A stretch of 64,000 nucleotides of DNA, taken from the NCBI GenBank assembly GCA_016197155.1, contig JACPWF010000006.1, positions 9,511 to 73,510 of the forward strand. The letters are read 5' to 3'. The notes under the pieces are model-generated. The model was not told the origin of the DNA and searched no databases. It worked only from the letters and a program-made list of their open reading frames with translations. Position numbers and translations under genes: made by a program. Origin of the DNA: Candidatus Omnitrophota bacterium. Its GTDB lineage: Bacteria; Omnitrophota; Gorgyraeia; 2-02-FULL-51-18. Shown here in pieces: positions 952-59,648 of the stretch. Positions within the stretch are counted from its first letter, which is position 1; each line of letters opens with the position of its first letter.

Positions 952-2218
952 GAACTGCCCCGGCTTTTTTATGATTCAAAATATAATTTTCAAATTCTTT
1001 TCTAAATTTCGTGATGTAACTCTGAATCGGCCAGGCCGCCGCGTCGGCGAATACGCAAATCGTGCGGCCTTCCATGTTTCGCGCGACCTTTAAAAGCGTG
1101 TCCAGGTCCCTCAAATCCCCCTCGCCGCTGTAAATGCGCTGAACCACTTTGTAGGCCCAGCCCGTGCCCTCGCGGCAAGGCGAGCACTGGCCGCAGGACT
1201 CGTGCGCGAAAAATTTCGCGGCCACGAGCAGCATCTTCACCATGCACGTCGTCTCGTCCATCACCATCACGCCGGCCGAGCCGAGCATGGTCCCGGCGGC
1301 CTTGAGGCCGTCGTAATCCATTTTCACGTCGATCTCGCCGGCGGTCAGAATTTTCGCGGAAATGCCTCCCGGAATCACGGCCTTGAGGGCGCGGTCATTC
1401 CGGATCCCGCCCGCGTGCGTGTAAATCATCTGGCGAAGCGGGGTCCCCATCGGCAGTTCGTACACGCCCGGCTTTTTCACGTGGCCGGAGACGCTGAATA
1501 GATGCGTGCCCCCGTTTCCGGGCGAGCCGAGATTCGCGAACCACTCGGCGCCGTTTTTTAAAATGTGCGGCACGCAGGCCAGGGTCTCAACATTATTGAT
1601 GATGGTCGGGCATCCGAAAAGCCCCACGATCGCCGGAAAAGGCGGTTTCAGGCGCGGAAAACCCTTCCCGCCCTCAAGCGAATTAAGCAGCGCCGTTTCC
1701 TCCCCGCAGATGTAGGCGCCCGCGCCCCGGTGAACGACCAGGTCCAGATCCCATCCCGACCCAAAAATATTTTTCCCGAGAAAATTTTCCGCGTACGCCT
1801 CGTCGAGGGCGGCCTTTAAATTTTGATAAGGCTCGACGTATTCGCCGCGGATGTAAATGTAGGCCTTGTGCGAACGGATCGCGAACGCGCTGAGGACGAT
1901 GCCCTCGATCAATTGATGCGGGTCGCGTTCCAAAATATAGCGGTCCTTAAACGTGCCGGGCTCTCCCTCATCCGCATTCACGACGAGATAAACCGGTTTT
2001 GGATTATCCTTGGGCAAAAACTGCCATTTTTTTCCCGTCGGGAATCCCGCGCCGCCCAGGCCCCGCAGGTTTGACGCGGTCACGGTCTGCACGATCTCCT
2101 CCGGCTTCATCGCCAGGAGGACTTTTCGCGCGGTTTCGTAGGCGCCGCGCGGCCCGGCGACGGAAAGTTTCCAGGCATTCGGGACGTTGAAATTGCGGGA
2201 GAGGATGGGCTCTGTCAT
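944..2218 (-). CDS. nuoF: NADH-quinone oxidoreductase subunit F (51 kDa, NADH/FMN-binding)
   Basis: 424 aa. GAGAYICGEETALLNSLEG, the ESCGQCSPCREG 4Fe-4S motif and the GGAGFPTGKKW FMN site are all present. Confidence 0.95.
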   Translation of the reverse strand: MTEPILSRNFNVPNAWKLSVAGPRGAYETARKVLLAMKPEEIVQTVTASNLRGLGGAGFPTGKKWQFLPKDNPKPVYLVVNADEGEPGTFKDRYILERDPHQLIEGIVLSAFAIRSHKAYIYIRGEYVEPYQNLKAALDEAYAENFLGKNIFGSGWDLDLVVHRGAGAYICGEETALLNSLEGGKGFPRLKPPFPAIVGLFGCPTIINNVETLACVPHILKNGAEWFANLGSPGNGGTHLFSVSGHVKKPGVYELPMGTPLRQMIYTHAGGIRNDRALKAVIPGGISAKILTAGEIDVKMDYDGLKAAGTMLGSAGVMVMDETTCMVKMLLVAAKFFAHESCGQCSPCREGTGWAYKVVQRIYSGEGDLRDLDTLLKVARNMEGRTICVFADAAAWPIQSYITKFRKEFENYILNHKKAGAVHG

Positions 2219-3212: not shown

Positions 3213-4565
3213 CTATCGATCCAGCTCCCCCCCGATCATATTCACAGAACCAAAAGTCGGCACGATGTCGGCCACCATGTCGCCGACGAGAATTTTTTCG
3301 AGCGCGGCCATGATCGGAAAACACGGCGGGCGCACGCGCACGCGGTACGGCCGGTCACTGCCGTCCGACACGACGTAAAACCCCAGCTCCCCGTTGGCGC
3401 CCTCGACGGGAAAATACGCCTCGCCCTTCGGAGGACACAGGCCGTGGCCGTGCATCACCAGTTTAAAATGATTCATCAGGCCTTCGATGTTGCCGTACGT
3501 GTCTTCCTTGGCCGGTAGGGCCACTTTTTTGTCCTTCGAATAAACATCGTCATGGTGGCGCCGCGTCGTCCCCTCAAGCGTCGGGTCAAGGTCCACCTCG
3601 ACTTCGTGAAAACCCTTGGTCCTGCCCATTTTCGCCGCGTCGACCATCTCCGCCGCCGACAGCACGCGCCCGAAATCGCCCACCGACACTTCGCCCTTGG
3701 GCATGTCCTTCAAAGCGCGCTCGACAATGCGGATGCTCTGCTCCATCTCTTCCATCCGCACGTAATAACGGTCGAGATTGTCCCCGTGCTCGCCCACCGG
3801 CACATCAAAATCGATGCGGTCATAAACGAGGTACGGGCGCGCCTTCCGGACGTCGTAATCGATCCCCGTCGAACGCAAAAACGGCCCCGTGAGGCCGTAG
3901 GCGGTCGCGTCCTCTTTTGAAATGACGCCCGTGTCCTTCAGGCGGTCAACGAAAATCCGGTTCGTATCCAAAAGCCCTTTGACTTCTTTCAACACCTTAC
4001 GGGTCTCGCTCAGCGCCGCGCGGCATTTTTCCTCAAAACCCTCCGGCAGGTCGGATTTCAAACCGCCGACGCGCGCGTAAGAAATCGTGAGACGCGCGCC
4101 CGTGACGCTTTCGATGAGTTCGTACAGAAATTCCCTGGCCTTGATCATGTAAAGGAAAACCGTGAACGCCCCCAGCTCCATCGCGGAGGCGCCGATGCAG
4201 GTGAGGTGATCGGTGACGCGCGAGAGCTCGCTCATCACCACGCGGATGTATTGACAGCGGTCGGTCGTCTCGAGGCCCATCAATTTTTCGACGGCCAGGC
4301 ACCAGCCGATGTTGTTGATGAGCGGCGACACGTAATTCAGGCGGTCGGTGTAGGGAATGGCGTTGTTGTACGGGCCCTGCTCGCACATTTTCTCGAACGC
4401 GCGGTGGAGATACCCGATCTCGACGTCGGCGCCCAGCACCGTTTCGCCGTCAAGTTTGGCCGTGATGTGCACGATCCCGTGCATCGCCGGATGCTGAGGC
4501 CCGACGTTGAGGAGCATGGGACGGGTTTCTTTAACTTTTAAATTAGGAGAAACAGGCTTGCCCAT
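3213..4565 (-). CDS. nuoD: NADH-quinone oxidoreductase subunit D (49 kDa)
   Basis: 450 aa with NVGPQHPAMHGIV and the C-terminal RVRPPCFPIMAAL typical of NuoD. A TAAGGA Shine-Dalgarno precedes the ATG. Confidence 0.95.
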   Translation of the reverse strand: MGKPVSPNLKVKETRPMLLNVGPQHPAMHGIVHITAKLDGETVLGADVEIGYLHRAFEKMCEQGPYNNAIPYTDRLNYVSPLINNIGWCLAVEKLMGLETTDRCQYIRVVMSELSRVTDHLTCIGASAMELGAFTVFLYMIKAREFLYELIESVTGARLTISYARVGGLKSDLPEGFEEKCRAALSETRKVLKEVKGLLDTNRIFVDRLKDTGVISKEDATAYGLTGPFLRSTGIDYDVRKARPYLVYDRIDFDVPVGEHGDNLDRYYVRMEEMEQSIRIVERALKDMPKGEVSVGDFGRVLSAAEMVDAAKMGRTKGFHEVEVDLDPTLEGTTRRHHDDVYSKDKKVALPAKEDTYGNIEGLMNHFKLVMHGHGLCPPKGEAYFPVEGANGELGFYVVSDGSDRPYRVRVRPPCFPIMAALEKILVGDMVADIVPTFGSVNMIGGELDR

Positions 4566-4590: not shown

Positions 4591-5583
4591 TCAATCGGAC
4601 GAACGCGTGATCTGCCTCAGGATCGCTTCTTTCAAGCGCGGATTGTCCGTCAGGCTCATCGCCTTCGTGTAAAATTCGGCGGCCTTGGCGAGTTCTTTTT
4701 GTTTCTCGTAGGCCATCGCCAGACTCAGGCACGCCTTGTAAAAATCGGGTTTCAGGGAAACGCTTTTTTCGTAGCACTCGATCGCCTTGGAATAATCATT
4801 CTCCTTGGCGTAGGCCGCGCCCAGATCGTACCACGCGACTTCGTCGTTCGGCGCGATTTCCGCGGCGCGCATCAGGGAATCGACGGCCTTTTGGTTCTCG
4901 CCGCGCTCCTGAAAAACATAGGCGAGGTTCGAATACGCGAAGACATTTTTGGGATCGGCCTGGATCGCCTTTTCGTAGGCGCCTTGAGCATTTTTCAAAT
5001 CATTCTGGCGGCTGTACAGATTTCCGAGCGAGAGATAGACGTCCGAATTTTGCGGATCGAGCCTGGCGGCCTGCCGGTACGCGTCGGCGGCCTTCACCGG
5101 CTCCCCCGCCCCCTCGTACGCCAGTCCCAGCGCGTGGCGGGCCTTCGAACTTTTCGGATCGGCCTTCACCGCTTTCTCGGCGAATGAAAGGGCCTGGTCA
5201 AAATCCTCTTTCTCCGCGTAGACAAGCGAGAGATTGAGAAACGTCTCGCCGTTCTCGGGATCAAGCTCCGCGGCCTTTTTGAGACTCGCCGCCGATTTGT
5301 CCCAGTTTTTTTGTTCGGCATAATTGACGCCCAGGCTCAGGTAGGCGGCGGCGTTCGCCGGATTCTCCGCGACCTCTTTCTCGTAAAGTTTTGTCGACTC
5401 CTCGAGGCTCCCCCGGCTGTAGGCCCTGTCGGCTTGTTCCAAAAACCCGGACCGGCTGGCCTCGGACGCGAGGGACAGATGACAGAAGACAGACGACAGA
5501 AGACAGACGACAGCGGTCAGCAGACAGGAGAAAAAGATCGAAAAAAAACAGGCTTTATTCTTTTTCCACTTTCCACTTTCCAC
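4591..5583 (-). CDS. TPR-repeat protein with N-terminal signal/TM segment, inserted between nuoC and nuoD
   Basis: 330 aa from a GTG start with a GGAGAG Shine-Dalgarno. It has a hydrophobic N-terminus followed by about 8 TPR units (AYLSLGVNYAEQKNWDKS..., TFLNLSLVYAEKEDFDQA..., VYLSLGNLYSRQNDLKNA...). Confidence 0.8.
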   Translation of the reverse strand: MESGKWKKNKACFFSIFFSCLLTAVVCLLSSVFCHLSLASEASRSGFLEQADRAYSRGSLEESTKLYEKEVAENPANAAAYLSLGVNYAEQKNWDKSAASLKKAAELDPENGETFLNLSLVYAEKEDFDQALSFAEKAVKADPKSSKARHALGLAYEGAGEPVKAADAYRQAARLDPQNSDVYLSLGNLYSRQNDLKNAQGAYEKAIQADPKNVFAYSNLAYVFQERGENQKAVDSLMRAAEIAPNDEVAWYDLGAAYAKENDYSKAIECYEKSVSLKPDFYKACLSLAMAYEKQKELAKAAEFYTKAMSLTDNPRLKEAILRQITRSSD

Positions 5584-5599: not shown

Positions 5600-6082
5600 T
5601 TAATTTAAAGGCCCAATGATCGGCTGACGCTCGTTGTAGCGGTAGTCCTTCCTCAAAGGATGCCCCTTAAAACTTTCGTACATCAGGATCCGCTTCAGGT
5701 TCGGGTGGCCGCTAAAGCGGATGCCGAACATGTCCCACGCCTCGCGCTCGTACCAGTCGGCGGCCGGCCACACGCCCGCCACCGAGTCGAGCGTCGGGTC
5801 TGTTTCGCGCACCTGAACTTTTATGAACAGGCGGTGTTTTTTTGTGAGCGAATACAGATTGTAAATAATTTCAAAGCGTTTTTCTTTTTCTTCCCAAAAT
5901 AAATAATCGACGGCGAAAAGGTCCATCAAGAGGTCGAAGGAAAATTCCGAATCCGCGCGGAGGGCGGCCATGAAATTTTTGACGGATTCTTTTTTGGCAA
6001 TGACAACCGGCTCGCCGGCGTTTGACGCCAGGTCCGAGACCATCGCGGAATATTTTTGTCGGACTTTTTCGGCGAGGTTCAC
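5600..6082 (-). CDS. nuoC: NADH-quinone oxidoreductase subunit C (30 kDa)
   Basis: The C-terminal 160 aa ([18 protein letters not shown]...[19 protein letters not shown]) are NuoC-like. The listed ORF is over-extended into nuoB. The start is taken as the GTG overlapping the nuoB stop (GTGA); an alternative ATG lies at 6043. Confidence 0.8.
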
Positions 6083-6552
6083 ACTTCCTGCTTCTGATTT
6101 TGAATTTTGTCCTGCAGTTTCATGAGGCCGTCCAGCACGTTCTCCGGGCGCGGCGGGCATCCGGGAATGTACACGTCGACGGGAATGATCGTGTCGATGC
6201 CCATCACGGTGGCGTAGTTGTCGTAAAACCCGCCCGTGCACGTGCACACGCCGAACGCCACGACCCACTTGGGCTCGCACATCTGGTCGTACACGCGCTT
6301 CAAAACCGGCGCCATCTTGTGGCTGATCGTGCCCACGACAAACAGCACGTCCGCCTGGCGCGGAGAAAAACGCGGGAAACCCGCGCCGAAACGGTCGACG
6401 TCGTAATGCGCGCAGGCCGTGGCCATGTATTCCATCCCACAACAGGCGGTGACAAAAGGATACTGGAAAATGGAAAACTTGCGCGCCCAGCCGATGGCGT
6501 CGTTTAGCTTCGTCGTCATGAAACTGAATTTGTCGACCGTCACCGCTCCCAT
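6079..6552 (-). CDS. nuoB: NADH-quinone oxidoreductase subunit B (20 kDa, 4Fe-4S N2)
   Basis: The ACCGMEYMA, GxCTCTGG and IPGCPPRPE motifs are present. The start is trimmed to MGAVTVDKF... (an AAGGGGG Shine-Dalgarno precedes it); the ORF's upstream extension overlaps nuoA. Confidence 0.88.
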
Positions 6553-6908
6553 TCGAGCGCCCCCTTCTTCCACGCGTACGCGAACCCGAGCGCCAGAAAC
6601 GCCAAAAAGGTGAACATCTCCGCGATCCCCGCCCACCCGAGGCTCCTCAGGATCACCGCCCACGGGAAAAGCCAGACGATTTCCACGTCGAACAAAATGA
6701 AGAGCATCGCCAAAAGATAAAATTTGACCGACAGGCGCGTGCCGCCTTCCGAGGCCTTGGGCAGGCCGCATTCGAACGGCTCGGCCTTTTCGGGGGTGCG
6801 TTTATTTTTCGGCCCGAGAATTTTATTGAGAAACAGAATGAGCCCCGCGATGCCCGCCGCGATGAGGAACGTGGCCAGCACGCCCAGGGTTTCGACCGAT
6901 GAATTCAT
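6540..6908 (-). CDS. nuoA: NADH-quinone oxidoreductase subunit A
   Basis: Three-TM protein ([27 protein letters not shown]...) with a FECG and [11 protein letters not shown] pattern typical of NuoA. The start is trimmed to MNSS. Confidence 0.82.
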
Positions 6909-7914: not shown

Positions 7915-8232
7915 ATGCCCTTCGAGCTTTACTTTCTCCCCCCTTACGGGCGCTGTCTCAAGCATCTTGGAAACAAAGAAAAACGCATTGCCCGACTGGT
8001 CGTTTCCGCGCTTCTTGAATATTTCCACTCAAACTCTCCCACTGGCAACCCTTACATGATCCCTGTCGGGGGAAGGGCTTACCGTTTGGTTTTCAAAAAA
8101 CTGGACGGGGCTGTCTGGGAAGCGTACATTGAAAACCACGTTCGCGTTCTCACAAGACTCGACAAACACCGGCACTTTCTCGTCTTCGCCGGCAATCACG
8201 ATCAGGTCAGACAATTTCTAAAAGAAAATTAA
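7915..8232 (+). CDS. Putative toxin partner of the AbrB-type antitoxin (weak RelE/ParE-superfamily resemblance)
   Basis: 105 aa, immediately downstream of and translationally coupled to the antitoxin. The C-terminal AYRLVFKKLDGAVWEAYIENHVRVLTRLDKHRHFLVFAGNHDQV resembles RelE/YoeB-like cores. The family assignment is tentative. Confidence 0.45.
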   Translation: MPFELYFLPPYGRCLKHLGNKEKRIARLVVSALLEYFHSNSPTGNPYMIPVGGRAYRLVFKKLDGAVWEAYIENHVRVLTRLDKHRHFLVFAGNHDQVRQFLKEN

Positions 8233-11200
8233 GCCCACGCGGCCGTCTGTTGGAGGGTTCGGAAATACTGCTGGATTTGAGTCCAGGCGGCGCGGAAAAG
8301 CGGCGGCAGGGCCAAGCGTTTGGCGGCGGCGCGGGTGTTTGGGGAAATGTCTCCCGATAAAAATAAATGAAGCGAAAAAGAAAGGTCTGTCCAATCAACC
8401 TCCGGCAGACGGGAGCGATAGAGGCTCACGAAACCGTCCGGAATATTTTTTGGATCGACGCTCGCCGCAAACATGGCCAGCCAAATATCCGCTTCTGAAT
8501 CCAACTCGCCCCGGTCGAGCGGCTTGGCCGGAATAAACGGCAGAGCCTGCGCCGCGGTCCAGCTGTTTATTTCCCCCGGCGTCGCCAGCGCCAACTGCCG
8601 GTACGGTTTGCCGGTAGCGGGATGGATCCGGGCATCTTGGTTAATAACACCTTCCGCCGCGAGCGTCGCCGCCAGGGGCATTTTTAAAATTCTGTCAACG
8701 CCGGTCCCTTCAAAACGGAAAATAAAGTTTTTCGCGGCCGGCAGCCGGGAAATGCGCCTCAGCATCAAAAGTTCATTCAATAAATAAGCCTTGTCCCCCG
8801 GCAAACGTCCCAAGTCAATACTGACCACGCAGGTTTCTTGAGAAACCAGGCCCGAGTCTTTGTATTTTTCAAAGGCGGCACGGACCTTCGCGGTTTCTTC
8901 ATCTCCTCTTTCCAAAATTTCTACCGCGCTCAGCATTTTCCTATCATCCGCCGCCGTCAAACCACGATCCGTTTGCACGCGTTCAATATTCAAATTCGCC
9001 GCCACAATATCCGCCTCGGAATAATGAAACCGCAAAACCGGCCGCATCTCTTCATCAAATAAAATAATATTATTTCCCGACCGTGCCGCAAAACCGGCCC
9101 CATCTCCTATCCGAATCGGATAAGGAATTTTATTCTCCAGCTCATTCAGCCTCACCGGTAAAAAGGCCTGCCTAAGCCGAGCCTTCTCAGACGCATTCAC
9201 GAGTCTGGCCCCCGCCGTCCTCCGAAGCGCGCGCGGCAAAGACTGTCCCTCCGGCAAAAGCGACTCCGGGAATTCGTCATCAACTCCGTCCGGGATCCCT
9301 TCCCTATGAGCCCGCTCCTGCGACTTTATCCGCTTCTCTTCAAATTCACGCCTTAAGGCTTCTCTTCTAAGACTTTCTTTATGACTGTACTGCTTGTGCG
9401 GAAACCTCCGCCGCGCCGCCAGCCTCGCACCGCTCTCAAGTCCTCTTATTTTCGATCGGTCAATCAAAATTTTCGAAATAATCGACTCTATTTCTCCTAC
9501 TTTCTCACTATAGGGTCCTGAGGATTCACCACTTCGCCCGGAATAAACCGTAATGGATAAAAGACTCGCTAAAAGAACCCCCAGACGTTCCGCGCAGTTA
9601 TCCTGGATCGCATATTCTAATAATTCATTAATCTTTGCGAGGGCCTTTTTGGTTTCCGGGTCTAAACGAATATTTGAAATCCTTTTTTCTTGCGCATCAA
9701 GATAGGCAAGTTGCAACGCTGTCTGGTATTCCCCGAACAAAACCAACAACTCGTCCCGGAACGCCTTTTGTAAGGGGTCCGCCGTTCCCGCAGCCCCCAC
9801 ACCCCCTGATTTCTGATTCGCCTCCGATAAACCGGCCAACCGCGCGCCTTTGCCGGTCCGCGGGACGACATGTTTGTGCTTATCCGCGATGCGTTCCATG
9901 CGGTTTAGTTTTATTTTTTTAATTTTGATCATGAGTCTCAATACTGCGTTTGATGCCAACAAAGAATAAATAGCCATCAGCCGTTGCCACACGGCTCCCA
10001 CCCTCCCTGCCTGCCGGCTAGAAAGAGACAACCTCGCGGCGTCCGGCCTGGATTCCGACACCTGTTCTCGATAAAGGGTCTCTAAACAGGTGAACGCCTC
10101 GGGAGACAGTCGGCCTTCATCATGCAGGCGCGTCAGAACGGCAGAGAACGCAGAGGGGTCGGGTCTCTGGTTGGATAATTCTCCCGCCGACCCCGCCACC
10201 AAAGCGTCGGGGGGCAGCCCTTTGACTCCGCCCAGGGCCAGCCGCGCGGCGGTGGTCAAACCCGTTCTTACTATTTGTTCCAACCGACGTTTTCGATAAT
10301 GTGTGGAGGCGCTGTCTGAATCCGGTTCGCCGGAAAATATTTCCTCCAAAATAGACTTCCATCTTTCCAGTTCGATGGGGTCCGTTAACCCCTGCTCCAG
10401 GCGAACCGCCAAAATAGCCGACACGATAGCGGCCTCGACAACCGGCCACCTTTCATCCGAAAACCCTGAAATCGCCGCCAAAATATTTCCCCAGCCGGAA
10501 ACGGCAGGTTTTACAATTTTTTCGATCGTTTCCCGATCTTGCCCGTTAAATTCCGCGGGCGTCCATTTATCTTGATTTCGCTTGGATTTTTTTTCCGTGT
10601 CAGCCGGAACACGGAGATTTAAAATGTGAAATACGAGCGCCGACAGGCGATTCAAAATTCTCTCTGCCTTGCGATGTTTCTCCAATTCTTCCGTCAGTCC
10701 GCGGGCAAGCTCCATTTTTACACTACGGTTTGCGCCGGCCGGATTTTGAACACCTTCCTTGCAAAGCCATCCCGAAAGCCTGTCAAGCGTCAAAAATGCG
10801 ACAGACTCAGGATCTGAGCTTTTTCCGGCTCTTTCTAAAATATCCTCACGCACCCGGCCCAAGCCCGCGTAAGGGGAGGGGACATCCGTAAACCCCGCCA
10901 CGGACATGGACTCAAAAAATTCTGCCAGGAAAGGCCCCGCGACATCACGCTCTGATGAACGGGTGTCGTTGATGGTCTTTTTCAAATAATCCGCAACACT
11001 CTGAACCCAACCCCCATAATTCCCGCCGGGCGCCATTTTCGGCCTAAACAGTCTCAATCTTCCGGTCGCCGTGTCGGCAACACCCAGGAAAACCTCTTCG
11101 TCTCCCCCGAACAGTCGTTTCAGGTGAAACATATCCAAAAAGATATTTTTCAACTGCGTGACGGAAAAAAAGCGGCCGCTCGTCCCGTAAATAAACGCCG

Positions 11201-14200
11201 CGTTCTGGCGCGGTCTATGCCAGGCGGGGACCAGTTCGGGGCGGAAGACGACCTCGTTGGCAAATGCGTGCTCGAGGGCGCCTCCCCCCGCGACAAACTG
11301 GACCGGCGTCCCGTCAGGATTCATGAAAAGAATGCCCACGCTTCCCGTTTTTCGCAAAATCCTCTCGTCGATGCGTACAGGCCCCGCGTCCTTTTCCAGC
11401 TCGCCCGTCATGCGCGGCTCAAGCTCCAGTAAAAGGAAATTCCGCAGAATGTTCTTACGAAAATCCTCCGGCACGGCCTCATCTTTTTTCTGATCGCTTA
11501 TTTTCTCCAGCCCCCAGGCGCAATATTTTAAAAAAGCCGTCCGGTACTCGTTAAAAAATGCGGCATTCCAGACCCGCGGCCACTTTTCCCGGAAATCGGC
11601 CATCCGCTCCGCCCTGCCGGGAGTCTCCCGCAGTTCCGCGAGGATTTTTGCTTTCACGCGCACCACGCCGGAAAGAACCAGGAGCTTCGAAAAAAATTCA
11701 TTGTCCGATTCCGCCGCCTCAGGCTCTGTTCGATCGCGCACAAACTCGGCGGCCGTGTTCCTTGTTTCCTGTATTTCCCGTAAAAATGCGCTCTCCCCCG
11801 GATGAGATTTTAAAAAATCACCGATCACCGCCTCTTGTTCATCGATGATCCGTTTGATATTTTGCGTGACCTGTTCCAAAAAACCGCGCGTCGAAACGGC
11901 TTCCCCTTTGATCCGGTTCGCGTCCATGATCCCGAGGACAAGCTCTACCGTATTCAATTCCCTGCTCACCCTGCCGCGGGGCGTGTGAAACGTGACAAGG
12001 GCTGTGTCGAAAACCGGGAGGTCGCTTGTCCATAAATCAGGCGGCGGAAGCGTTCCCGAATCCGACACGATCGTGACAAGGCCATCCCTCAGGTCAACAA
12101 CGGACCGGCCTGGCCCCACCCTGCCCGACGCAATCTCTTCGGCGGCGTACTGAATGGGCGTCAATAAATCGTCAAACTCCCGCGACCGCGGTTCCGGTCG
12201 GATCGGCGGGGTCTTTTGATGATTCCCGGGGGGCGCGTTTCCGCCGCGTCCGCGCCGCGTCCGCGCGGCGCCGGCACCCGCTAGCCGCGCGCCAAGCACG
12301 CCGCCCGTATCAAGCTCATGCCGGATTTTTTCAAACTCCAGCACGGCCATCGCGAAGGTCCAATTGGACCAGTTAAGCGCGGAGGCCCCGCGCATCCGGA
12401 ATTTGACCCGCCCTCCTTCCTCATAGCGCTCGATTTGTTCGGAAAAAGACTTGCCTTTCGGCGCCAGGTCCCTCAGAAAATTCAGGGTGTCTTGCGCCCT
12501 TTGAAAAAGCGCGCCAACGATTTGCCAGTAACGTTCGTCTCCGGGAAAAATCGTCTTACTCGTATTCACGTCGTGGATTCCCTGATGATTAATAAATTTT
12601 CTAAAGCTCTCCGAATTTATATCTATTTTTCTCTCGTCCAAAATTTTCCGTATCGCCTTCAAATTAAACAAAACCGCCCACAGCGTCGTGATCACCCACG
12701 CGTGCCCGGAGTCGTTGGGCGCTTCCGTGAAAGCCAGTCCGCCGTATTTGTCGCCGGGATAACGCCCCCACAACACCGTGCGCGGGAACCGGACCGTCTG
12801 CTCCGGGGATAAGGCAAATTTTCTGGCGAACACATCATCCAGCTGAACGTAAGTTTCCAGGATCGCGGGATCAAAAAACCCGTGGTACGGCTCCGGCAAA
12901 TTCAGCGTATAGGGAAAGATTGTCTGCGCGTCGAGACGGGTGGGTTTCTCACCATTGGGTCCTTCGAGACGCCCCGAGTTAAACACGTAGCGGTGGGCCA
13001 AAAGATAGTCGGCGGGACGTTCCCAAGTGTCCGGCCGGCCTTTGTAAATCGGCAGGACTTCCCTCTCCAAAAAATCGAGGGGGCCTTGGCCCTGTTCCAA
13101 TTCCGAATAGGGACGCCCCGCAAGCTCGGCCAAGCCATTCAACGCTTCCCGCGAGCGCGCGGCCGATACCATGCGCTTCAGAACACCGTAGTAAAGGATG
13201 TCATTCATGGCGTGCTTCCCGTGAAACTCCTCCCACGCGTCCAAATCGCGCGGGTCATTCTCCGGATCACGACTGCCACGGACGTATAAAATCGAATGGA
13301 GAATATTTTTACGGATCGCCTCGACGGCCCGTTCGAGAAGAAAAAGCGCTTTCCGCTCCCGCTCGGATCCCGCTTCCAATAGACCGTTCTCAAAAAGATC
13401 GAGCATCAGAATCGCCGCGTGGGCGGGTCCGTCGCTCTGGTCGCCCCAATTGGTCTCCGGTTCGGACAGGCCGTCCCATCCCAGTCTTTGGGCATTCAGT
13501 TTGTGAGTGGCCCCGTAACCCTGATAAAGGTAGTCGAGAAATTTATTCAAAATGAGCCGCGCATTTTCGAAAGCGCCCGCGCGCCTGGCCAGAAATGCGG
13601 CAAACTGGCACGCGTCACGCATCCAAGTAAAACCGTACAAAGGGTTGCCTTCCACGGAGCGAGGATCGTCGATCCCGTCGGTCAAATGGGAAGAAGCAAA
13701 AATCGCGCCCGTTTTCATCGCGTCACCCAGGGCATCCGAAAGGGCCGTCACAAACGCCTGTCTAAAATCTTCCCCCACTCCCAACTGCGCGGGCGCGGCT
13801 CTCGCTTCCAGGTTTCTCTCAGAACTCCCGACAAGCCGGTGCCGCCGGTCATCAACCGGCACGTGAATGAGAGCTTTTTGCCTTCCGAAAGGATAAAAAT
13901 ACGTATCCCTCGAGTCTTCCTTTACCCTCGCCCGGACAGTCAATCGATGGGTCCCCGGAACCATGGTGTTATTTTCAAAACGAACCTTGAAAAAAACTGC
14001 TTCCGGAGGAAGTCCTCCGTTACCTGAGCCCACGGAAATAATGTTGGCCGGATAACGCTGTCTTCTGTTGGTGTGGTTGCTTTCAATTTCAATAACAAGA
14101 CTGTCTCTAATTTTCCGCGGGTCAATCACCCCGTCTAAAAACAGAACGCCTTCGACCACCAAAGGTTGGTCCGGTCCTATCAGATAAGGCGTGTGGAATG

Positions 14201-17200
14201 AAGTGACCCTGTCATTATTCACCGAGAGCCAGCCGTCCGTATCGGTTTTTTTCTCATCCACGCGAAAGGGGAGATTCTCCACCGGATTAGCCGTCATTTT
14301 AAAAATATGAACCGTGGGCGAAGCTCTGTGAAAATAGGGCCTGAGGCCTATGCTCAAACCTTCCTTCGCCAACTGCCGCCCCGACCGGTCGTACTGGCGA
14401 AGGGACTGTCCCTCGCCAGGTAAATGGGGGGCCATGTCCCGAAGGCGGTAGTTTTTGTTAGGGTCCGGGCTGAAAAGAGGCTTCACATCAACCGACACAA
14501 AATCTTTCATGCCGTCTTCCCCGGGCTCGCTTTTCAGGGACACGGCATGATTGGAAAGATTGATGCCGACGATGAGAGCCGTTTGTGGATTTGTTTCCCC
14601 CCGATTTTTTATCCCAAAGATCAAAAAAGGTTTTCCTTTTTCCGGATAATGAAGGGAAACCGCTTCAGCCGCACCCAACTCCCTGCCCAATCTTTTTCTC
14701 AAATTGACCAAACGGCAAAGGTAGGCCCTTGTCGAGGCGCTCACATTTTTGAAATAATCATGGTCTGCGATTTGATTCCACTTGGGACCGTCCCCGAGCG
14801 GCCAGACCGCAAAAAGTGTCGCGATCACGCGCGCGGCCTCTTCCCCCTGAATGTCCTGATAGCGCCGCCTCTCGGCGGGTTCGTTGGGACCGGAGATGGG
14901 TCTAAAAACGCCGGAGAGTTCCAAGAAATCCGAGTCCAGATAAACACGAAACCATCTGTCGTAGGTCCCCGCCATCCGCGCGCCCCGTCCCCCTCGTCTC
15001 GGGGAGGCGATCACTTCAAAGGCCGTGTTAGCATGATCCTCGAGAAACGGGTAAGCTGTCTTAAGTTCGGAAAAACGCCTTCGCGCCTCGGTCATCCTCT
15101 CGGCGGGAGACACAAACTTCATCGCCTCGGCCGTCACATGGCGGAGCATGCGTTCAAAAGGCGTCAGATAATATTCGCCGAATTCCTGCACGCGCATGTC
15201 CCATGAATACTTTGAATTAAGCGCGTTCTCAACCACGTGCTTCCATTGATTCGAATTTTTGTAAACTGACAGCGCTTCCGCGATGGCGCCTAAAAACTCC
15301 TCGTGATTGTATCCCTCAAAAATAAAACCGTTGCCTGTCGGGTGACGACCGGCATCATAAACTTGAACGGTGTCCTGCAATCCTCCCGTCTTTCTCACAA
15401 TCGGCACCGTTCCGTAAAGCATCGCGATCGGCGGGGTGAGTCCGAACGGCTCTGTTCTTGAAGGGACAATAAACAGATCACTGCCTGCGTAAATCAGCTT
15501 GTCATTCGAATCCATTTCGTATCCATCCAGATTCACGGGATTCTTGTCCAAACGGTCATCGGAATCGTTCAAATAAAAACGAAATTGCCCGCCGTACCCG
15601 CTTTGCCACAAGTAGTGCGCCAGATTCCTGAAATTTGCCTTTTCATCGCCAAAACCGTTCATGTCGTTGAAAATGATGACCTGCGCCCCGAGGTCCAGAG
15701 TCTTTTGAAGGACATCCCGCACAAGACCCGTTCCTTTTTGCTCAGGATCCAGGCGCGCGATCATGGAAATGATCGGCACGTTCTCATCAACATTCAAATC
15801 AAACCGTCTTTGCAGTTCAGCTTTCGCTAAAGGTTTAATTTTTTCCATTTCTCTAACCGTTTCAAACCCGCGGTAAGCGCCGGACCCATTCCCGTTCCCC
15901 TTATCCAACCCATTGGCAATCGGATGCCAGGCCCCTTCATCGTGTCGCCTTTTGGCAATCTCATCCAAACCCCCTGTCGGAACAAGGTTTCCCATAATTT
16001 CATCGCCGTAACCCTTGCTGACCGCGTCCACCCCGTCGGCGAGCGCGATCGCCGCGCGCGTCAGATTGAATCCGCCGCGCAGGGCAAAATCGCGCGCGTA
16101 CTGCGTCGGATCCGAAAGCGTCAAACCGAGAATATCGAACCATTCATCCGGAAACTGGCCCTGATAAGTGGGTCCGGCGTTGTGGATCCTGTAAAAATAC
16201 TTGGCGCGGGAGAGAGGATCGTTTAAATCATTTCGTGGATCGAGATACCAGCCGGCATGCTCCATCCTCCCCAGAATAGGAACGAGCGCCGTCAGCCAGT
16301 CGTTGGCGTGAATCACGTCCGGCTTGGGCATGAGCCCTCCGCGAACCAACTCGGGAATCACCTTCATCACACTGCGCGAGAAAAAGACAGCCTGCCGGAG
16401 CGAAGTGTCGTTGTAGGTGGTGTCATAAAGATGATGAGTGTAGTCGAGCGCCTGATTCGTGGCGCCAAGAAGCCAGTAATAAACGCCGTTGACCATCGCC
16501 TGTCTCACCGCGCCGGGAACCTGGACGCCCGCGACAGGCGCGGAGTATTCGATGTCCGTTGGCCGCACATCAAAATCTCCTGATTTTCCGTTGGACGAAT
16601 GTCTATAATCCGGCATAAAAAGCGAAACAAACCCATCTTCCAAACCTAGACGCGCCAGCGCGGCCGCCTGCTCGGCGGCCGAGTCGCCGAGACCGCCTCT
16701 CTTGGCAAACGGCCTCGCCTCCGGAGTGACTAACACAATGTGCGGAGGATAACCCTTCCACGATACCGGTTTCACCCGTCCGGCCATCCGCGCACCGGCC
16801 GGCTGCACGCGGCGGCGATACTTTGGATCTCGCAAAAAGCGGAGCGCGCCTTTTTTAAACGTCCACTCAATCCCCCCATCTTTTCGTTTCCCCGTTATTG
16901 TTCCTTCGCGGATACCTTTTTTCACGATCAGGCCCCATAGCCCACGGTTGAAGGACTGTATTTCGTGGTTAAAAATGTTTACGCGAATGGCCTCCTCGCC
17001 GCCCGCGGATGACTGAAGCAGTGAATCCCAGCGGCGGAGCTGTCCGATGACCCGATCATTTTTCTCTGCTTGGATTTTCCGCCGCGGGATCCGCCTGACG
17101 CCGACACGCCTGAAGTGCCGCAAAACGGCCCGGTAGCCCACCGCTTCCAAATCAATCAGCTTGCCGGCCAGATCCACGATTTCAGCTTCAGAACCCCCTC

Positions 17201-19073
17201 TCGGAGCGGTGAGTGCCAAGTACACGGCTGGGCGCTTTTTCATGTCGGCCAACGTGGAACCCTCCTTGATCACCAGCGCCCTCAGAGCCATGCGGTAAAA
17301 ACGGTCTGTCTTGGCCAAGCGGAGGAGTTGTTCAAAAACATCCGTGTTGATTGTCAGTTCCCGCTGGTCCGGTCCCTCAATCGCGCGATCGATCCGGACA
17401 GCCGCCGCGCCCACCGCCTCATTTTTATCGCGACGGGTTCCGGCGGAAATAAAAACTTTGTTGGGGACATTCAAAAATTCATTCACCCACCCCCGCTCTT
17501 CCCGGCTCAAGCGATCCGAATTCCTAAAAAATTCTCTCAGGCCCCGAAGAATCTTTTCCGGACGGTTGTCCGCTGAGACGATGGCCGGGCCTTGAATAGA
17601 TTTAACCGGAGGCGCGGCATCCTCTTTCACTTCCAAAAAACGATAAACGAAACAAACGACCGACAATGAAACTGCGAATATTACTCCCCCCAAAAGCAGA
17701 TCTCGTCTGTTCACCAAATACCTTCTATTGGGTTCGGAGTGATCGTTCGGATCCTGTGCGGACAGCCTCGCGGCGAACAACCGGCTCATTGAATAACCTT
17801 GAACCAAAAGCGCGTAAATAACCGGGCGTGTCAGCCGGTCTAAATCCAGCTGTGCCGGATTAGACGAGTTTCTATGAGCTTGAATAGCGGAAACCGCCTC
17901 ATTTATCGCGTCATTATTCAGGCTCAGCGTTGAAATGAGCTCAACGATTTTCTCGCTGAATGGCTTCTGCCGGGGAAATTCTTGTTCTTCGGGTCTTATT
18001 TTTATGAACCAATTGTTCAACAGCTTTCCGACCTGCGAGATCCTTATTTCTTCGTCGTTCAATCGATTTCTTTTTTGTTCTAATTTCAAATTCTCTTGAT
18101 AATGATAAACGGTCGATTCATAAACGTCATGGGCTTCCCTAAAAATCTCTTCCTGGTTTGGGTAAACTTTTTTTAATATTCCCCACACCGCATCAAAAGT
18201 GACGTCGCTCGTCTGCCGGCCGGGGGTGACGGGTACATTGGTATAACCTGTGATACTCGCCAATCTCGCCCCGCCGGTTCCATGTTGCCAAGCGCTGGCC
18301 TCGTTCCTCAAACTCGCCAACCGCGCGGCGGCAAGCGGTTCAAAAATGGGCAGTGCCCGAACCCCTGAGACAGCCGGGGTCAGACCCCTGTCCGGCGATG
18401 GCCGGTGAGGGGTCAGGCCCCTCAAGGGCTCCAAAAGCACCTCTTCATATTTTTTCTGACTCGTTTCGGACGTGACATTCGGCGTGAGAACGACGTAGGA
18501 CCAGCCTTTTTCCTTGAATAATTTTTTGAGATGCGCGGTGTGGTAGCCGCCCGCGATGAGAATGGCCGCCTTCGGCGTCCGGAGAGTGGATTGTGCCTGC
18601 CTGCCGGACAGGCAGGGAGAGTGGGTCGTGGATTTATCCACCATCCACGATCCACCATCCACGATCCGCTGTGTATTTCTTACAAACGCCCTGTCTCTGG
18701 CATTCACAGACCCATAAAACCGTCTCAGCAATTTTTTCCCGTCCTCCAAAATATTTTTGCTGGGCACCATGTCCGCAAAACACCCGCGGTCGGCAAGCTC
18801 ACGGTTCACAAAAGCCAGCGTCGAGAGCGTCGAGAAATCTTTTTCGTTGAAATCAAACAGACGGAATTCCTTGGAGGACATCTGGATCCGGTAAGCACTT
18901 TCCAAAAGCCGCAGGTAACGGTCAATCGCATGTAGGGTCGGAGGGGTCAGAGGCCTCCGACCCCTTTTTAGAATGACGGAATACACCCTCTCCTCCGTCC
19001 GCTCCGACTCATTCAGAAGTGTTTTGTAAGTGACAGAACAAAAAATTCTTTTTTGTTCTGTCATCCCGAGCAA
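8229..19073 (-). CDS. Giant multidomain protein (up to 3,614 aa) with a GT5 glycogen/starch-synthase-like domain and a GH15 glucoamylase-like domain; the 5' end is ambiguous
   Basis: A single uninterrupted 10,845-bp ORF. GT5 motifs: [13 protein letters not shown] (KTGGL type), [14 protein letters not shown], and the C-terminal [39 protein letters not shown]. GH15 motifs: [24 protein letters not shown] (catalytic WEE) and [31 protein letters not shown]. One hydrophobic helix lies near aa 445 ([22 protein letters not shown]). About 1,700 C-terminal residues are unassigned. Start candidates are TTG 19073, ATG 19064 and ATG 18884. Confidence 0.85.
   Translation of the reverse strand: [3614 protein letters not shown]
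8231..8266. repeat. Direct repeat copy 2 (the true 3' end of the giant gene)
   Basis: Matches 7531-7566. It encodes the last 11 codons plus the stop of the giant ORF. Confidence 0.8.
18935..18964. repeat. REP-like GC palindrome GGGTCGGAGGGGTCAGAGGCCTCCGACCCC
   Basis: A member of the palindrome family that also occurs at 50798-50828 and 56551-56572. It lies inside the maximal giant ORF but upstream of its ATG at 18884. Confidence 0.6.
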
Positions 19074-19986
19074 GCGAAGCGCGTCGAGGGATCAAGTCAT
19101 CACTATGGGTTTTTTCTACCAACGCCGCCTGCTCCAGATTCGCGAGATTGAAATCAATTTGCTTTTCTTTATCTTTTAAATTTATTAATTGCTGAATGGC
19201 GGGGAATTCATTCAGACTGATATTCTTTTCTTCGGCAAGCTTCAAGAGGCCTTCAATGCTTTTCCCCTGATTTCTGATTTCTGACTTCTGATTTCTGTCT
19301 TTTTCATATTCCAAAAGTTCTTTGGTATAATACTTATTTTTCAGCTTTTCAACCGACACCTCAATCGTTTTCAAATAATCCAGGATCGCCTCGCGCTTGC
19401 CGGCCAAAGCCGCATAATTTTTCAGGCTCTCCATGTAAAGATTCAGATCTTCGACGCCCATGATCTTCATCGAACGATTTGAGCTAAGATTTAAATATTC
19501 CTCCCCCTGAATTTTTCCCTGCGCGAGATAACTGCGGCCGAGGCGTTTCCACACTTCGGGAGACGCAATTTTTTTGATCGGCGTCAGCGTGCAGTCCCCT
19601 TCTCCACCCTCCGACAATACCAGTAGGGGCGACGCGTCGCCCGCCTGCCGGACGGGCAGGCGTCGCCCATACGGCGCATAATATTTTTCCGAAATCGCCT
19701 CAAGAGTTTTCGCCAAATTTTCCTGGCCGGAGAGATTGGAGTGGGCATCCTGGATGTGAATGATGAGCCTGCCGTTTGTGCCGCGGTGAATTTCCTTTAA
19801 GTCCGCGAAATCCAAGGGCGTCTCAAATAAGGTAGGATTCTGCGCAATCATCTGCAGGGGCGACCCGTACGAAGAATCGTGGCTATACATCGAATCCACC
19901 GGCGCGGCGTAGGACAGCTCTTGAATTAAAAAAGTCCCCGCCAGCACGAGCGCGATCGCTTTTATGCGCGTCTTCATTTTGTGCAT
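19009..19986 (-). CDS. Secreted hypothetical protein (signal peptide; Lys/Glu-rich with a short tandem repeat)
   Basis: 325 aa. The N-terminal MKTRIKAIALVLAGTFLIQELSYAAPV is a signal peptide. A tandem 7-nt DNA repeat (19267-19297) encodes QKSEIRNQ-type repeats. The 3' end overlaps the maximal giant ORF by 65 bp in a +1 frame. Confidence 0.7.
   Translation of the reverse strand: MHKMKTRIKAIALVLAGTFLIQELSYAAPVDSMYSHDSSYGSPLQMIAQNPTLFETPLDFADLKEIHRGTNGRLIIHIQDAHSNLSGQENLAKTLEAISEKYYAPYGRRLPVRQAGDASPLLVLSEGGEGDCTLTPIKKIASPEVWKRLGRSYLAQGKIQGEEYLNLSSNRSMKIMGVEDLNLYMESLKNYAALAGKREAILDYLKTIEVSVEKLKNKYYTKELLEYEKDRNQKSEIRNQGKSIEGLLKLAEEKNISLNEFPAIQQLINLKDKEKQIDFNLANLEQAALVEKTHSDDLIPRRASLARDDRTKKNFLFCHLQNTSE
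19033..19061. repeat. Perfect palindrome ACAGAACAAAAAA-TTC-TTTTTTGTTCTGT (13-bp arms containing A6/T6 runs)
   Basis: Seen directly in the sequence. It sits exactly where the 325-aa ORF and the giant ORF overlap in different frames. Confidence 0.9.
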
Positions 19987-20403: not shown

Positions 20404-21036
20404 ATGTCTGAAGCCGCATCCTTGGATGTGTTTACCATCGTGCTTTTTGCCCTTCGCTGGCTGCATTTCATTTTTGGCATCACCTGGATTGGCCTTCTTT
20501 ATTTCTTCAATTTCGTGAACGGCCCCTTCCAAAAAACCCTCGACGCCAATACCAAAAAAATCGTCGTTCCTCAGCTCATGCCGCGGGCGCTGTGGTGGTT
20601 CCGCTGGGGCGCCATGATCACGTTCCTTTCCGGATGGGCGTACATCGGAATCAAACTTCACGCGAACGGCGCGGGCCTGACGGGCGAAGGCGGTCTTTTG
20701 ACTTCAACCTGGGGTCAATGGATCTCGCTCGGCGCGCTTTTTGGAAGTGTGATGTGGTTTAATGTGTGGTTTGTTATTTGGCCGGCTCAACAAAAATTGA
20801 TCGCCTGGACCAAAGCGGGTCAGGCGCCGCCTGAAATGGCCGGACTCGCCGCCAAAGCCGCCAAACGTTCACGCATCAACACTTATCTCTCGGTACCGCT
20901 TTTATTTTTCATGGGAGCCGCCAGCCACTTTCCTTCGTTCAGCTGGATAACGGCAGTGATCGTGATCGCCATCGGCTTTGTGCTTGTGTGGCATCTCATA
21001 AATAAAGTTGCGCCAAAGGTGGGTTCGAATTTTTAA
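20404..21036 (+). CDS. Integral membrane protein, HemJ/CopD-like (DUF420-type) family guess
   Basis: 210 aa with 4-5 TM helices. RWLHFIFGITWIGLLYFFNF resembles the HemJ TM1 (conserved His). An AAGGAG Shine-Dalgarno precedes it. Confidence 0.6.
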   Translation: MSEAASLDVFTIVLFALRWLHFIFGITWIGLLYFFNFVNGPFQKTLDANTKKIVVPQLMPRALWWFRWGAMITFLSGWAYIGIKLHANGAGLTGEGGLLTSTWGQWISLGALFGSVMWFNVWFVIWPAQQKLIAWTKAGQAPPEMAGLAAKAAKRSRINTYLSVPLLFFMGAASHFPSFSWITAVIVIAIGFVLVWHLINKVAPKVGSNF

Positions 21037-59393: not shown

Positions 59394-59547
59394 ATCTAAT
59401 CCTTTAAAATCTTATCATAACAGCTGTCACAAATCGGCTGTGTCTGAGCTTCCCCCGGCCCTCCAAAGGTTACGGGTCTCTCACAAGTACTTGGCTCTTC
59501 TTTCCCACATACCGAGCATTCCACAAACTACTCCTTGTAATAAAATT

Positions 59548-59648
59548 TAGTGCCCTGCTCCTAAACTGGAAGCGAGACGAAACACTTTCTCGCGGAGCTT
59601 TTCCTTCAGTGCTTTCGGGTTGGCTTTTTCTAAAACGTCGAGTTCCAT
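59548..59648 (-). pseudogene. Truncated duplicate of the nadA 5' end (33 codons; MELDVLEKANPKALKEKLREKVF then divergent)
   Basis: Its ATG at 59648-59646 lies 1 nt after the nfu stop codon. Its first 23 codons are identical to the nadA N-terminus. Confidence 0.5.
59576..59646. repeat. Direct repeat copy 2 (71 bp; ancestral nfu-nadA junction)
   Basis: Matches 57491-57561 with 2 mismatches. It ends in the ATG, where copy 1 has TTG. Confidence 0.85.

Follow-up and report, generated by a model that had tools for sequence, protein, structure and literature searches.

Why does a five-residue motif recur along a very large bacterial protein, close to the edges of its domains? The question is raised by a stretch of 64,000 nt from Candidatus Omnitrophota bacterium (contig JACPWF010000006.1, positions 9,511 to 73,510 of the forward strand; this whole stretch is termed the window here), which carries an open reading frame (ORF) of 3,614 amino acids (aa) on its minus strand. 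The corresponding NCBI entry, MBI3251822.1, is 100% identical to this giant ORF, starts 29 aa further in (3,585 aa), and is named 'glycogen/starch synthase [Candidatus Omnitrophota]'. We consider that the motif, G-A-R-(L/M)-A, most likely represents polyprotein processing sites that are read by one co-evolving factor, for which the N-terminal domain of the protein is the best candidate. Cleavage is predicted, and we hold this reading with about even confidence.

Extremely long genes are a known feature of Omnitrophota, whose lifestyle has been proposed to be predatory or host-dependent. Giant proteins of this phylum, including classes named 'Archaeovorins' and 'Dockerin-type', have been described in which GT5 is the second commonest domain, and cleavage by C39 or subtilisin domains was proposed for them with the statement that the cleavage points are unknown (West-Roberts et al., bioRxiv 10.1101/2023.11.21.568195). 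Suspected cleavage without known cut points is an obstacle both to structure prediction and to the functional reading of such proteins. The motif described here is a concrete, testable candidate for the missing cleavage points.

A reading of the window made from its sequence alone (the sequence-only reading) had listed seven occurrences of G-A-R-[LM]-[AV], four of them followed by G. The re-translated ORF contains the same seven in the quoted contexts, at aa 268, 760, 1364, 2261, 3076, 3215 and 3288, and every GAR tripeptide of the protein (7/7) is followed by L or M. The single AARLA that had been reported is an undercount, as there are two AARLA (aa 249 and 2942) and two AARLS (aa 434 and 3012), which brings the total for [GA]AR[LM][ASV] to 11 sites where about 0.1 is expected. 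For GAR[LM][AV] the expectation from composition is 0.04, in keeping with the earlier estimate of fewer than 0.1. Among 2,000 shuffles of the ORF, the mean was 0.04-0.12 and the maximum three, and none reached the observed count. When all k-mers were ranked blindly, ARLA and GARL emerged as the two most over-represented 4-mers of the protein. The motif is not equally frequent in other proteins. Across the window's 35 remaining long ORFs (14,910 aa) there are two matches against 0.43 expected, or 0.13 per 1,000 aa compared with 3.04 in the giant ORF, and 120 ordinary GlgA proteins used as a control hold one against 0.6 expected. Within the window, the motif is specific to the giant gene. Chance or composition was rejected as its source on the basis of the shuffles, the de novo k-mer ranking, and the controls with other ORFs and ordinary GlgA.

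The sites are distributed among domains as listed below, where 'head' denotes the N-terminal domain shared with a family of relatives, and 'orthologue' the one related protein to which the window protein was aligned. Coordinates are those of the window.

8229..19073, minus strand: giant ORF of 3,614 aa, multi-module, with 11 motif sites (translation of the window)
19009..19986, minus strand: upstream 325-aa ORF, with a signal-like helix and the head N-lobe (IHIQDAHSN, LVLSEGG); frame change before the giant ORF
18369..19046, minus strand: head C-lobe, giant-ORF aa 10-235 (family matches align to query aa 10-220; AlphaFold2 model)
18693..18698, minus strand: invariant R126-D127 of the head C-lobe (family invariance)
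18537..18551, minus strand: GGYHT of the head C-lobe (family invariance)
18315..18329, minus strand: site 1, AARLA, aa 249; first site past the head; orthologue ASRLA aligned
18258..18272, minus strand: site 2, GARLA, aa 268, in the context GGARLAS; the orthologue has an insertion here
17760..17774, minus strand: site 3, AARLS, aa 434; start of module X
17643..17699, minus strand: the only strong internal hydrophobic helix, aa 459-477, 25 aa past site 3
16797..17759, minus strand: module X, aa 439-759; a second copy lies elsewhere in the orthologue
16782..16796, minus strand: site 4, GARMA(G), aa 760; 13 aa ahead of the GlgA domain; orthologue AARLAE aligned
15165..16742, minus strand: glycogen/starch synthase domain, GT5 + GT1, aa 778-1303 (Pfam PF08323, PF00534; TIGR02095)
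14970..14984, minus strand: site 5, GARMA(G), aa 1364; past GlgA and its conserved C-terminal extension; orthologue GARLAE aligned
12363..13718, minus strand: GH15 glucoamylase-type domain, aa 1786-2237 (PF00723)
12279..12293, minus strand: site 6, GARLA(G), aa 2261; 24 aa past GH15; orthologue AARLAT aligned
10236..10250, minus strand: site 7, AARLA, aa 2942 (motif scan)
10026..10040, minus strand: site 8, AARLS, aa 3012 (motif scan)
9834..9848, minus strand: site 9, GARLA(G), aa 3076 (motif scan)
9417..9431, minus strand: site 10, GARLA, aa 3215; orthologue GARLAS aligned
9198..9212, minus strand: site 11, GARLV, aa 3288; start of the tail module; orthologue GSRLS aligned
8232..9197, minus strand: C-terminal tail module, aa 3293-3614, among the few modules that recur in the family; end ...QQTAAWA, in keeping with the small C-terminal residues seen across the family

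Two of the modules can be named. The GT5 and GT1 portions of the first are recognized by PF08323 (112 bits against a cut-off of 22.7, E 4e-32) and PF00534 (46.7 bits against 26.4, E 3e-12). This GlgA module is about 31% identical to ordinary GlgA, and it is divergent, because its TIGR02095 score (255 bits, E 1e-75) lies under the cut-off of 328. The second is a GH15 module, which scores 43.7 bits with PF00723 (cut-off 22, E 2e-11) and 147 bits (E 8e-43) in the orthologue. The proposal that the motif lies at domain boundaries is confirmed by these assignments: the sites at aa 760 and 1364 flank the GlgA module at aa 778-1303, and that at aa 2261 follows the GH15 module at aa 1786-2237. A Gly/Ala/Arg-rich low-complexity run, GARLAGAGAARTRRGRGG, follows site 6 (aa 2261-2278, 12270..12300) and includes a second 'GAAR'; the run is absent from the orthologue.

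Word-based protein searches yielded almost no relatives of the giant protein, and a scan of metagenomes yielded none that were relevant. The family was defined by an exhaustive HMMER search with aa 1-777 of the giant ORF as the query, which returned 562 proteins at E <= 0.001 (members are cited here by handles, the window protein being P0122). The best 150 of these 562 matches are mostly 2,000-7,364 aa long, and all 150 match through one region, with query aa 10-220 aligning to about aa 330-520 of the match. Two members carry an NCBI organism name, Omnitrophota in both cases. Motif statistics for the family cover 149 sequences (388,361 aa) retrieved from the best 150 matches. In these, [GA]AR[LM]A occurs 480 times where 6.4 are expected, including 287 GARLA (1.9 expected) and 102 GARMA (0.3 expected). 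Only one of the 480 matches lies inside the head (73,000 aa in total), and the other 479 come after it. For the generalized motif there is one site per 487 aa.

A sequence logo built from 652 instances confines the information to positions -1 to +5. Position -1 is most often S (0.23) or A (0.21), and the first position of the motif is G (0.82) or A (0.18). The second and third positions, A and R, are set by the search pattern, although single-position scans agree with them (A at 389 of 486; R 389 versus K 6). The fourth is L (0.78) or M (0.22), and the fifth is A (0.71) or else one of S, T, V, G or P. For 5-10 residues to either side, the sequence is slightly hydrophilic. We rejected the notion that the motif is part of a longer repeated domain, both because the information ends at these positions and because self-BLAST gave no internal repeat around the sites.

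In the window protein and more than a hundred of its giant relatives, the motif falls at the boundaries of modules. The median distance between sites is 272 aa (interquartile range 123-458 aa), which is the size of a domain or protein. In P0141 the HATPase_c (aa 2453-2562), His_Phos_1 (aa 2902-3093) and RelA_SpoT (aa 3622-3744) domains each fit within one inter-site interval (where a site is near, the distance to it is 19-46 aa), and the LOG domain of P0143 likewise lies inside a single interval. No Pfam domain spans a site in the window protein, P0141 or P0143, and the distance from domain to site is 13-60 aa. Of the BLAST alignment ends, 32% lie no more than 10 aa from a site, compared with 5% at random; for alignment starts the figures are 20% and 6%. 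Cutting the proteins in silico at their sites yielded 817 modules of at least 50 aa that form 545 clusters, 483 of which are singletons. The head alone is universal, and a few tail modules recur; Pfam searches with the recurrent tail modules gave no match. Modules of other members that Pfam recognizes comprise HATPase_c, His_Phos_1, RelA/SpoT, LOG and alpha-amylase, and a module of P0140 carries HRDLKPANIW, which resembles the HRDLKPxN motif of eukaryote-type Ser/Thr kinases. Members share a layout in which a signal-like N-terminal helix comes first, followed by an invariant head of about 500 aa, then by modules in a hyper-variable string, and last by a tail that is semi-conserved and ends in small residues. 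In sum, [S/A]-G-A-R-[L/M]-[A/S/T] is a protein-level short linear motif at the boundaries between independent modules. The proteins that carry it appear to constitute a previously undescribed family of at least 150 giant multi-module members, and in the literature searched we found no report of the motif, while the family defined by the head and the concerted variation described below likewise appear to be unreported.

The semi-conserved tail has features of its own. Nearly all full-length members (P0123-P0226) end in a conserved C-terminal helix followed by '...A[VI]G[SAT][AS]A-COOH', and this end may serve as a signal for secretion, sorting or degradation. A motif-like [AT]R[ML][AV] stands about 10 residues ahead of the conserved C-terminus; the window protein ends with ...TLQQTAAWA (8232..8300). 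Where internal hydrophobic helices occur in the family, they tend to stand soon after a site, 34% of them within 60 aa compared with 14% at random. A module with such a site-adjacent helix resembles a free-standing signal-anchored protein.

A scan of species-representative genomes revealed a single relative, the orthologue referred to above. It is encoded by an ORF of 4,337 aa in a groundwater Candidatus Omnitrophota metagenome-assembled genome (locus L001, JACQQX010000041.1; NCBI MBI4432576.1, which has the same NCBI name as the window protein). The two proteins are 43% identical overall, with the head and GlgA region well conserved and the remainder at about 20%. As the sequence-only reading would lead one to expect, the motif is present in the orthologue, where [GA]ARLA occurs nine times against 0.08 expected, and it is kept through regions that are only about 20% identical. 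The two checks proposed in the sequence-only reading, frequency in other proteins and presence in orthologues, thus both came out in favour of the finding. Four orthologue sites align with window sites, namely the two that flank GlgA, the one that follows GH15, and the one at aa 3215. Two more window sites (aa 249 and aa 3288) are matched by ASRLA and GSRLS in the alignment, and the other orthologue sites sit in lineage-specific insertions. One such insertion, of about 250 aa and with a faint match to a methyltransferase (E 0.19), stands opposite window site 2 (aa 268) and has AARLA at its end.

Modules can also change place. Window aa 454-766 matches orthologue aa 3271-3581, which is a wholly different position in that protein (39.5% identity, E 3e-47), and we term these the two copies of module X. 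Both begin with AARL[SA] and a hydrophobic helix, and both end with ARMAG or ARLAA. Modules therefore move as motif-bounded units. Among the modules found only in the orthologue, one has a helix-turn-helix resembling sigma-70 region 4 (PF08281, E 2e-6, aa 1479-1528, L001 13676..13825), and the faint methyltransferase match lies at about 11000..11720 of L001.

The form of the motif is not constant from protein to protein, and where it departs from the consensus it tends to do so at many sites of a protein together. In P0192, GTRL[AS] stands at 12-13 of 13 sites and GARL is absent; GTRL[AS] is also found in P0149 (8 sites) and P0180 (7). GSR[LVA] is the variant of P0175, P0182, P0125 and P0191, and P0257 has GAKLA five times. 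The choice between L and M follows the same trend, with GARM at 9/9 sites in P0140 and 12/12 in P0184, and GARL at 13/13 in P0178. Among the 60 proteins with at least six sites, heterogeneity is pronounced both for A/T/S at position 2 (p = 2e-50) and for L/M (p = 9e-33). Proteins in which M dominates are scattered across the head phylogeny, so the switches between L and M happened repeatedly. From this concerted change of amino acids, which is accompanied by mixed codons, we infer that the many sites of a protein probably track one co-inherited reader.

Does selection act on the peptide or on the DNA that encodes it? The sequence-only reading had argued for the peptide on the grounds that each copy uses different codons. 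The codons do vary: in the window gene Arg is encoded by CGG, AGG or AGA, Leu by TTG, CTG, CTA or CTC, and Met by ATG, and with the orthologue included the set extends to CGA and CGT for Arg and CTT for Leu. Nevertheless, the argument was overstated in that these two genes show a significant skew toward GCC/GGC-GCG-CGG-YTG-GCG. The second motif Ala is GCG at 18 of 20 sites compared with a gene-wide fraction of 0.45 (p = 4e-5), and Arg is CGG at 12 of 20 compared with 0.28. The exact 11-mer GCGCGGYTGGC is present in 3 and 6 copies, only in the window gene and the orthologue gene, always in frame and on the coding strand, and its confinement in this manner led us to reject a genome-wide DNA motif. 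The skewed codons are the most frequent for each residue, as would be expected of selection for accuracy at critical positions.

These observations bear on a model in which the repeated unit is a DNA-level element, for example a short, partly palindromic sequence for recombination or gene conversion that shuffles module cassettes in frame, such that the peptide is a mere translation. The skew (seen in the window gene, the orthologue and P0143), the 11-mer with its restriction to these genes and to one frame, and the gain, loss and duplication of modules exactly between motif copies could all be explained in this way. However, two-base synonymous changes such as CGG/AGA and TTG/CTC leave the peptide unchanged, 15 nt is short for homologous exchange, the use of the commonest codons fits accuracy selection, and the amino acid variants are concerted yet their codons are mixed. 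Most telling is P0192 (locus L004), in which a uniform peptide is encoded without any nucleotide consensus: Leu is CTC four times, CTT three times, CTG and TTG twice each, and CTA and TTA once each; Arg is CGT six times, CGG three times and CGC twice; and Thr is ACG six times, ACC four times, and ACA and ACT once each. Because the peptide of P0192 is uniform while its codons are scattered, selection acts on the peptide. The scattered codons of P0192 and the family-wide excess of the motif bear out the earlier claim of selection at the protein level, a repeat for recombination or gene conversion is largely excluded by the former, and we regard the DNA-level model as highly improbable.

A second nucleotide-level model holds that the codon for L or M (ATG, TTG or CTG) initiates translation internally, so that one mRNA would give each module as a protein of its own. 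Of the 20 L/M codons in the window gene and the orthologue, 18 are indeed NTG, the residue that follows would permit removal of Met, and some modules open like stand-alone membrane proteins, with basic residues and then a transmembrane (TM) helix. Yet Val (GTG) is depleted at the L/M position (10 of 449) whereas Phe occurs there (19), and 9 of the 13 Leu codons of P0192 are not NTG; on these three findings we excluded internal start codons. There is also no Shine-Dalgarno-like element upstream of the sites in the window gene or the orthologue, and the model leaves the strict G-A-R upstream and the absence of stop codons unexplained. We rate it as the least probable of the explanations considered.

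If the motif is read as peptide, the reader could be sought within the protein itself, and the head is the obvious candidate since it is the sole universal module and lacks the motif. In the window the head is divided between two ORFs. The upstream 325-aa ORF is 41% identical to orthologue aa 8-275, and a fragment, P0001, runs unbroken across the junction of the 325-aa ORF and the giant ORF; for both reasons we take the 325-aa ORF to be the missing N-terminus of the giant protein. The giant ORF continues in another frame (junction 19010..19075, minus strand), while in relatives the sequence runs on unbroken, with about 40 additional residues at this point. The junction has A6 and T6 runs, and the split may be a real frameshift or deletion or else an assembly error.

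An AlphaFold2 model of the head, computed from an alignment of 27 sequences, is confident, with a predicted local distance difference test (pLDDT) score of 85.9 and a predicted template modelling (pTM) score of 0.78. It consists of an alpha/beta core (strands 57-63, 70-76, 102-105, 154-157, 457-463 and 480-486) that is interrupted by a helical insertion of about 290 residues (161-452). Foldseek comparison with the PDB gave nothing significant, the highest listed probabilities being those of EreC (6xcs, 6xcq) and ChaN (2g5g), and a profile search of PDB sequences with the head gave nothing relevant. The Pfam family PF04187 ('Haem-binding uptake, Tiki superfamily, ChaN') matches 3 of 27 members below threshold (best E 0.008). 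In 107 of 107 heads, D76-x-H78, E106, E143, E159, R178, R438-D439 and H466 are invariant (P0172 numbering); D76, H78 and H466 were in part selected by the pattern used to extract these heads, and the other invariant residues were not.

The spacing of these residues is informative. H78 and E106 are 28 residues apart, as are R438 and H466. In Bcr135 the catalytic His-Glu pair is H85/E113, and the corresponding residues of RRSP include R4001/H4030 (PMC6254334). RRSP, one of the MARTX effectors, has been shown to be a sequence-specific endopeptidase of the TIKI family whose active site is of the 2His/2Glu+Arg type (PMC6254334). The predicted alpha/beta core of the head may correspond to that of TIKI, Ere and ChaN proteins, and the head has the spacings of the 2His/2Glu+Arg set of RRSP and Bcr135. 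All matches of the head to the TIKI/erythromycin esterase/ChaN/TraB-PrgY superfamily are below significance, and the head differs from it by the helical insertion between the core halves and by an Asp in place of the first Glu. The head is probably a TIKI/Ere/ChaN-type hydrolase with an intact catalytic set, a putative assignment drawn from invariant residues and the predicted fold. We know of no TIKI/Ere/ChaN/TraB-PrgY superfamily member that processes its own polyprotein at repeated sites.

Two further observations concern the ends of the head. The c-region of the signal-like helix, 'QE[LI]SYAAP', is unusually conserved across the family (the window N-terminus is MHKMKTRIKAIALVLAGTFLIQELSYAAP, 19900..19986); ordinary signal peptides are not conserved to such a degree. 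At the other end, the peptide RGLT occurs four times in the giant protein, where 0.12 is expected. Two copies are part of a short direct peptide repeat, LRGLTPHRPSPDRGLTPAVSG, within aa 214-231 (18380..18433), between the head and the first site, and the others are at aa 2791 and 3370. A semi-conserved 'DG[IV]RA' stands at the position of the repeat in other members.

With these elements in hand, a mechanism can be proposed in which G-A-R-(L/M)-A is a recognition site and site-specific proteolysis would cut the polyprotein into its modules. One factor, co-evolving with the sites, would recognize them all, and the head, as a putative TIKI-type hydrolase, is the best candidate for it. If the head is the reader, the likeliest scissile bond would follow L/M and leave a small N-terminal residue, as at the Leu-small sites of MARTX toxins. 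More specific is the proposal that Omnitrophota make some of their enzymes, including ordinary metabolic ones such as glycogen synthase and glucoamylase, as cellular polyproteins in which a co-evolving N-terminal TIKI-type peptidase cuts each site; this we advance only tentatively. A cysteine protease acting in cis, of the C39 or C80 type, was considered and rejected, because no Pfam match was found and the sole Cys that is invariant between the window protein and the orthologue, C474, lies inside the TM helix.

Several observations weigh against processing by the head. Cleavage is itself a prediction from sequence, and the homology of the head is sub-threshold. Of the four genes whose codon use inside the motif was examined, three are biased, so that a minor effect at the nucleotide level is conceivable. 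No head column correlates convincingly with the L/M preference, the best being a Q to R change in 'YRIQMS' (5/8 versus 3/34), which is not significant after multiple testing. The head lies behind a signal-like helix, and the strong hydrophobic helix of the window protein (aa 459-477) could put a membrane between the head and the eight downstream sites; an internal TM helix is absent in 98 of 149 members, which weakens this objection. Some long members have an intact head and no detectable motif (P0194, P0223, P0135, P0144, P0245 and P0253). Finally, some sites are 12-20 aa from the C-terminus or only 10-40 aa apart, so that cuts there would release only small peptides.

Some of these points are shared by a model in which the sites are read in trans, by a separate Omnitrophota protease or by an enzyme of a host or prey, with the head devoted to anchoring, export or other hydrolysis. 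The evidence from the motif serves this model equally well, and it accommodates the head behind its signal-like helix, the internal TM helix that may part the head from most sites of the window protein, the intact heads in members without the motif, and the lack of a head column that follows the motif variant. It fits less well with the confinement of the motif to head-bearing proteins, as other window proteins and ordinary GlgA are at chance, and no gene for a protease recurs beside the giant gene. A protease encoded nearby was likewise rejected, the neighbours including nuo genes and genes for a TPR protein and a Urate_ox_N protein, none of which is a protease. In addition, the repeated and scattered switches between L and M and among A, T and S are easiest to explain with a reader that is inherited alongside its sites, that is, in cis. 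We consider a trans-acting protease unlikely.

Alternatively, the motif might never be cut. It could serve for docking or as a structural element, in which a short helix with G as its cap and ARLA as its first turn opens each module and binds a common partner, which might be a scaffold, a chaperone, some component of secretion or the head itself, with the giant protein working as one chain. An AlphaFold2 model of P0128 is consistent with this picture: aa 510-529, which precede the first site, have pLDDT values below 50, a helix begins at the site itself (aa 530-534), and it is of moderate confidence, with pLDDT values of 70-88 across 40 residues from the site. The residues S, T and D, which are typical of helix N-caps, are enriched at position -1. 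Concerted variants would be expected with any single reader, be it a protease or not, and sites that are close together or near the C-terminus would be poor cut sites. On the other hand, the residue after L/M has the smallest of side chains (A/S/T/V/G/P), and at the L/M position itself F is rare and V and I are depleted, which is the classic pattern of P1-P1' positions flanking a scissile bond. The modules are unrelated enzymes with no evident need for a tether, their order is scrambled between relatives, and a helix cap alone would not keep five residues near-invariant in proteins of <= 50% identity. An uncleaved motif is, in our view, improbable to much the same degree as a trans-acting protease.

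The processing model has precedents in two known systems. MARTX toxins have small-Leu-small processing sites in the unstructured segments between effectors, many of which are cut by a protease domain in cis (PMC2900308). Like the family described here, they are giant secreted proteins with a conserved head and tail and, between these, a variable and recombining array of unrelated enzymatic modules. The window protein similarly has 11 sites with L/M followed by A, S or V at module boundaries, and in the P0128 model a disordered stretch precedes the site, although the likeness is one of layout only. MARTX toxins have RTX repeats and an inositol hexakisphosphate-activated C80 cysteine protease, and by Pfam the window protein has neither: no RTX or haemolysin-type repeat family was found in scans of the window protein, its segments and the orthologue, and Peptidase C80 gave no match at E <= 1 in the window protein and the orthologue. 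The family site (G-A-R-L/M-A) is longer and stricter than that of MARTX. Members also differ from MARTX in having an N-terminal TIKI-like head as the candidate protease, a Sec-like signal, metabolic and regulatory modules such as GlgA and GH15, and an origin in Omnitrophota. A layout otherwise known from MARTX-type effector-delivery toxins is suggestive in view of the proposal that Omnitrophota live as predators or depend on hosts.

The second precedent is the viral polyprotein, in which one ORF gives many mature products, each junction carries a motif of four to six residues, and a protease of the same ORF (picornavirus 3C, alphavirus nsP2, nidovirus Mpro) co-evolves with its sites. The family shares the junction motif and the concerted change of sites. 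In contrast, its window representative is a cellular gene beside a nuo operon and shows no homology to viral proteases, and cleavage here is only predicted. If enzymes are indeed made as cellular polyproteins that an N-terminal TIKI-type peptidase cuts at every site, as tentatively proposed above, a free-living or epibiotic bacterium would use a virus-like strategy of gene expression, and a simple sequence rule would be available to divide the giant ORFs of the phylum into their real products.

The family overlaps in part with the giant proteins already reported from Omnitrophota. A 2026 preprint (10.64898/2026.06.07.730766) describes 'multi-enzyme metabolic clusters' of this phylum with starch synthase, HATPase_c and methyltransferase domains and recovers the Archaeovorins as a cluster with dockerin and TSP3 repeats; the words motif, cleavage, linker, polyprotein and processing do not occur in it, and neither linker nor polyprotein was found in the text of West-Roberts et al. 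The phylum, very long ORFs, and GT5, GT1, HATPase_c and methyltransferase domains are common to both sets. The published giants are grouped into classes by Pfam content and are 30-150 kaa (thousand amino acids) in length, and neither paper reports a cleavage site or a TIKI-like head for them. Members of our family, at 2-7 kaa, differ in lacking dockerin/TSP3 and C39 domains; Pfam scans of the window protein and the orthologue found no dockerin/TSP3, HEAT-rich, C39 peptidase or SecA-like families. In the literature searched, no paper joins Omnitrophota with polyprotein, and 'GARLA' as a whole word is mostly a surname among the matches listed.

The genomic neighbourhood of the giant gene is partly conserved. 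In the window it adjoins genes for complex I, including nuoB (6079..6771), nuoC (5600..6442), nuoD (3213..4565) and nuoF (944..2218), and a TPR gene (4591..5583) lies among these. The genes nuoA/B/C(D) neighbour the giant gene in two other genomes as well (the contigs compared were those of P0141, P0192 and P0132), which indicates conserved synteny. A gene for a Urate_ox_N (PF06181) membrane protein is located divergently upstream (20404..21036), and likewise in one other genome. Scans of the window for tRNAs and Rfam families gave no match. The G+C content falls to 0.44 at 58001..60000 compared with 0.52-0.61 elsewhere in the window.

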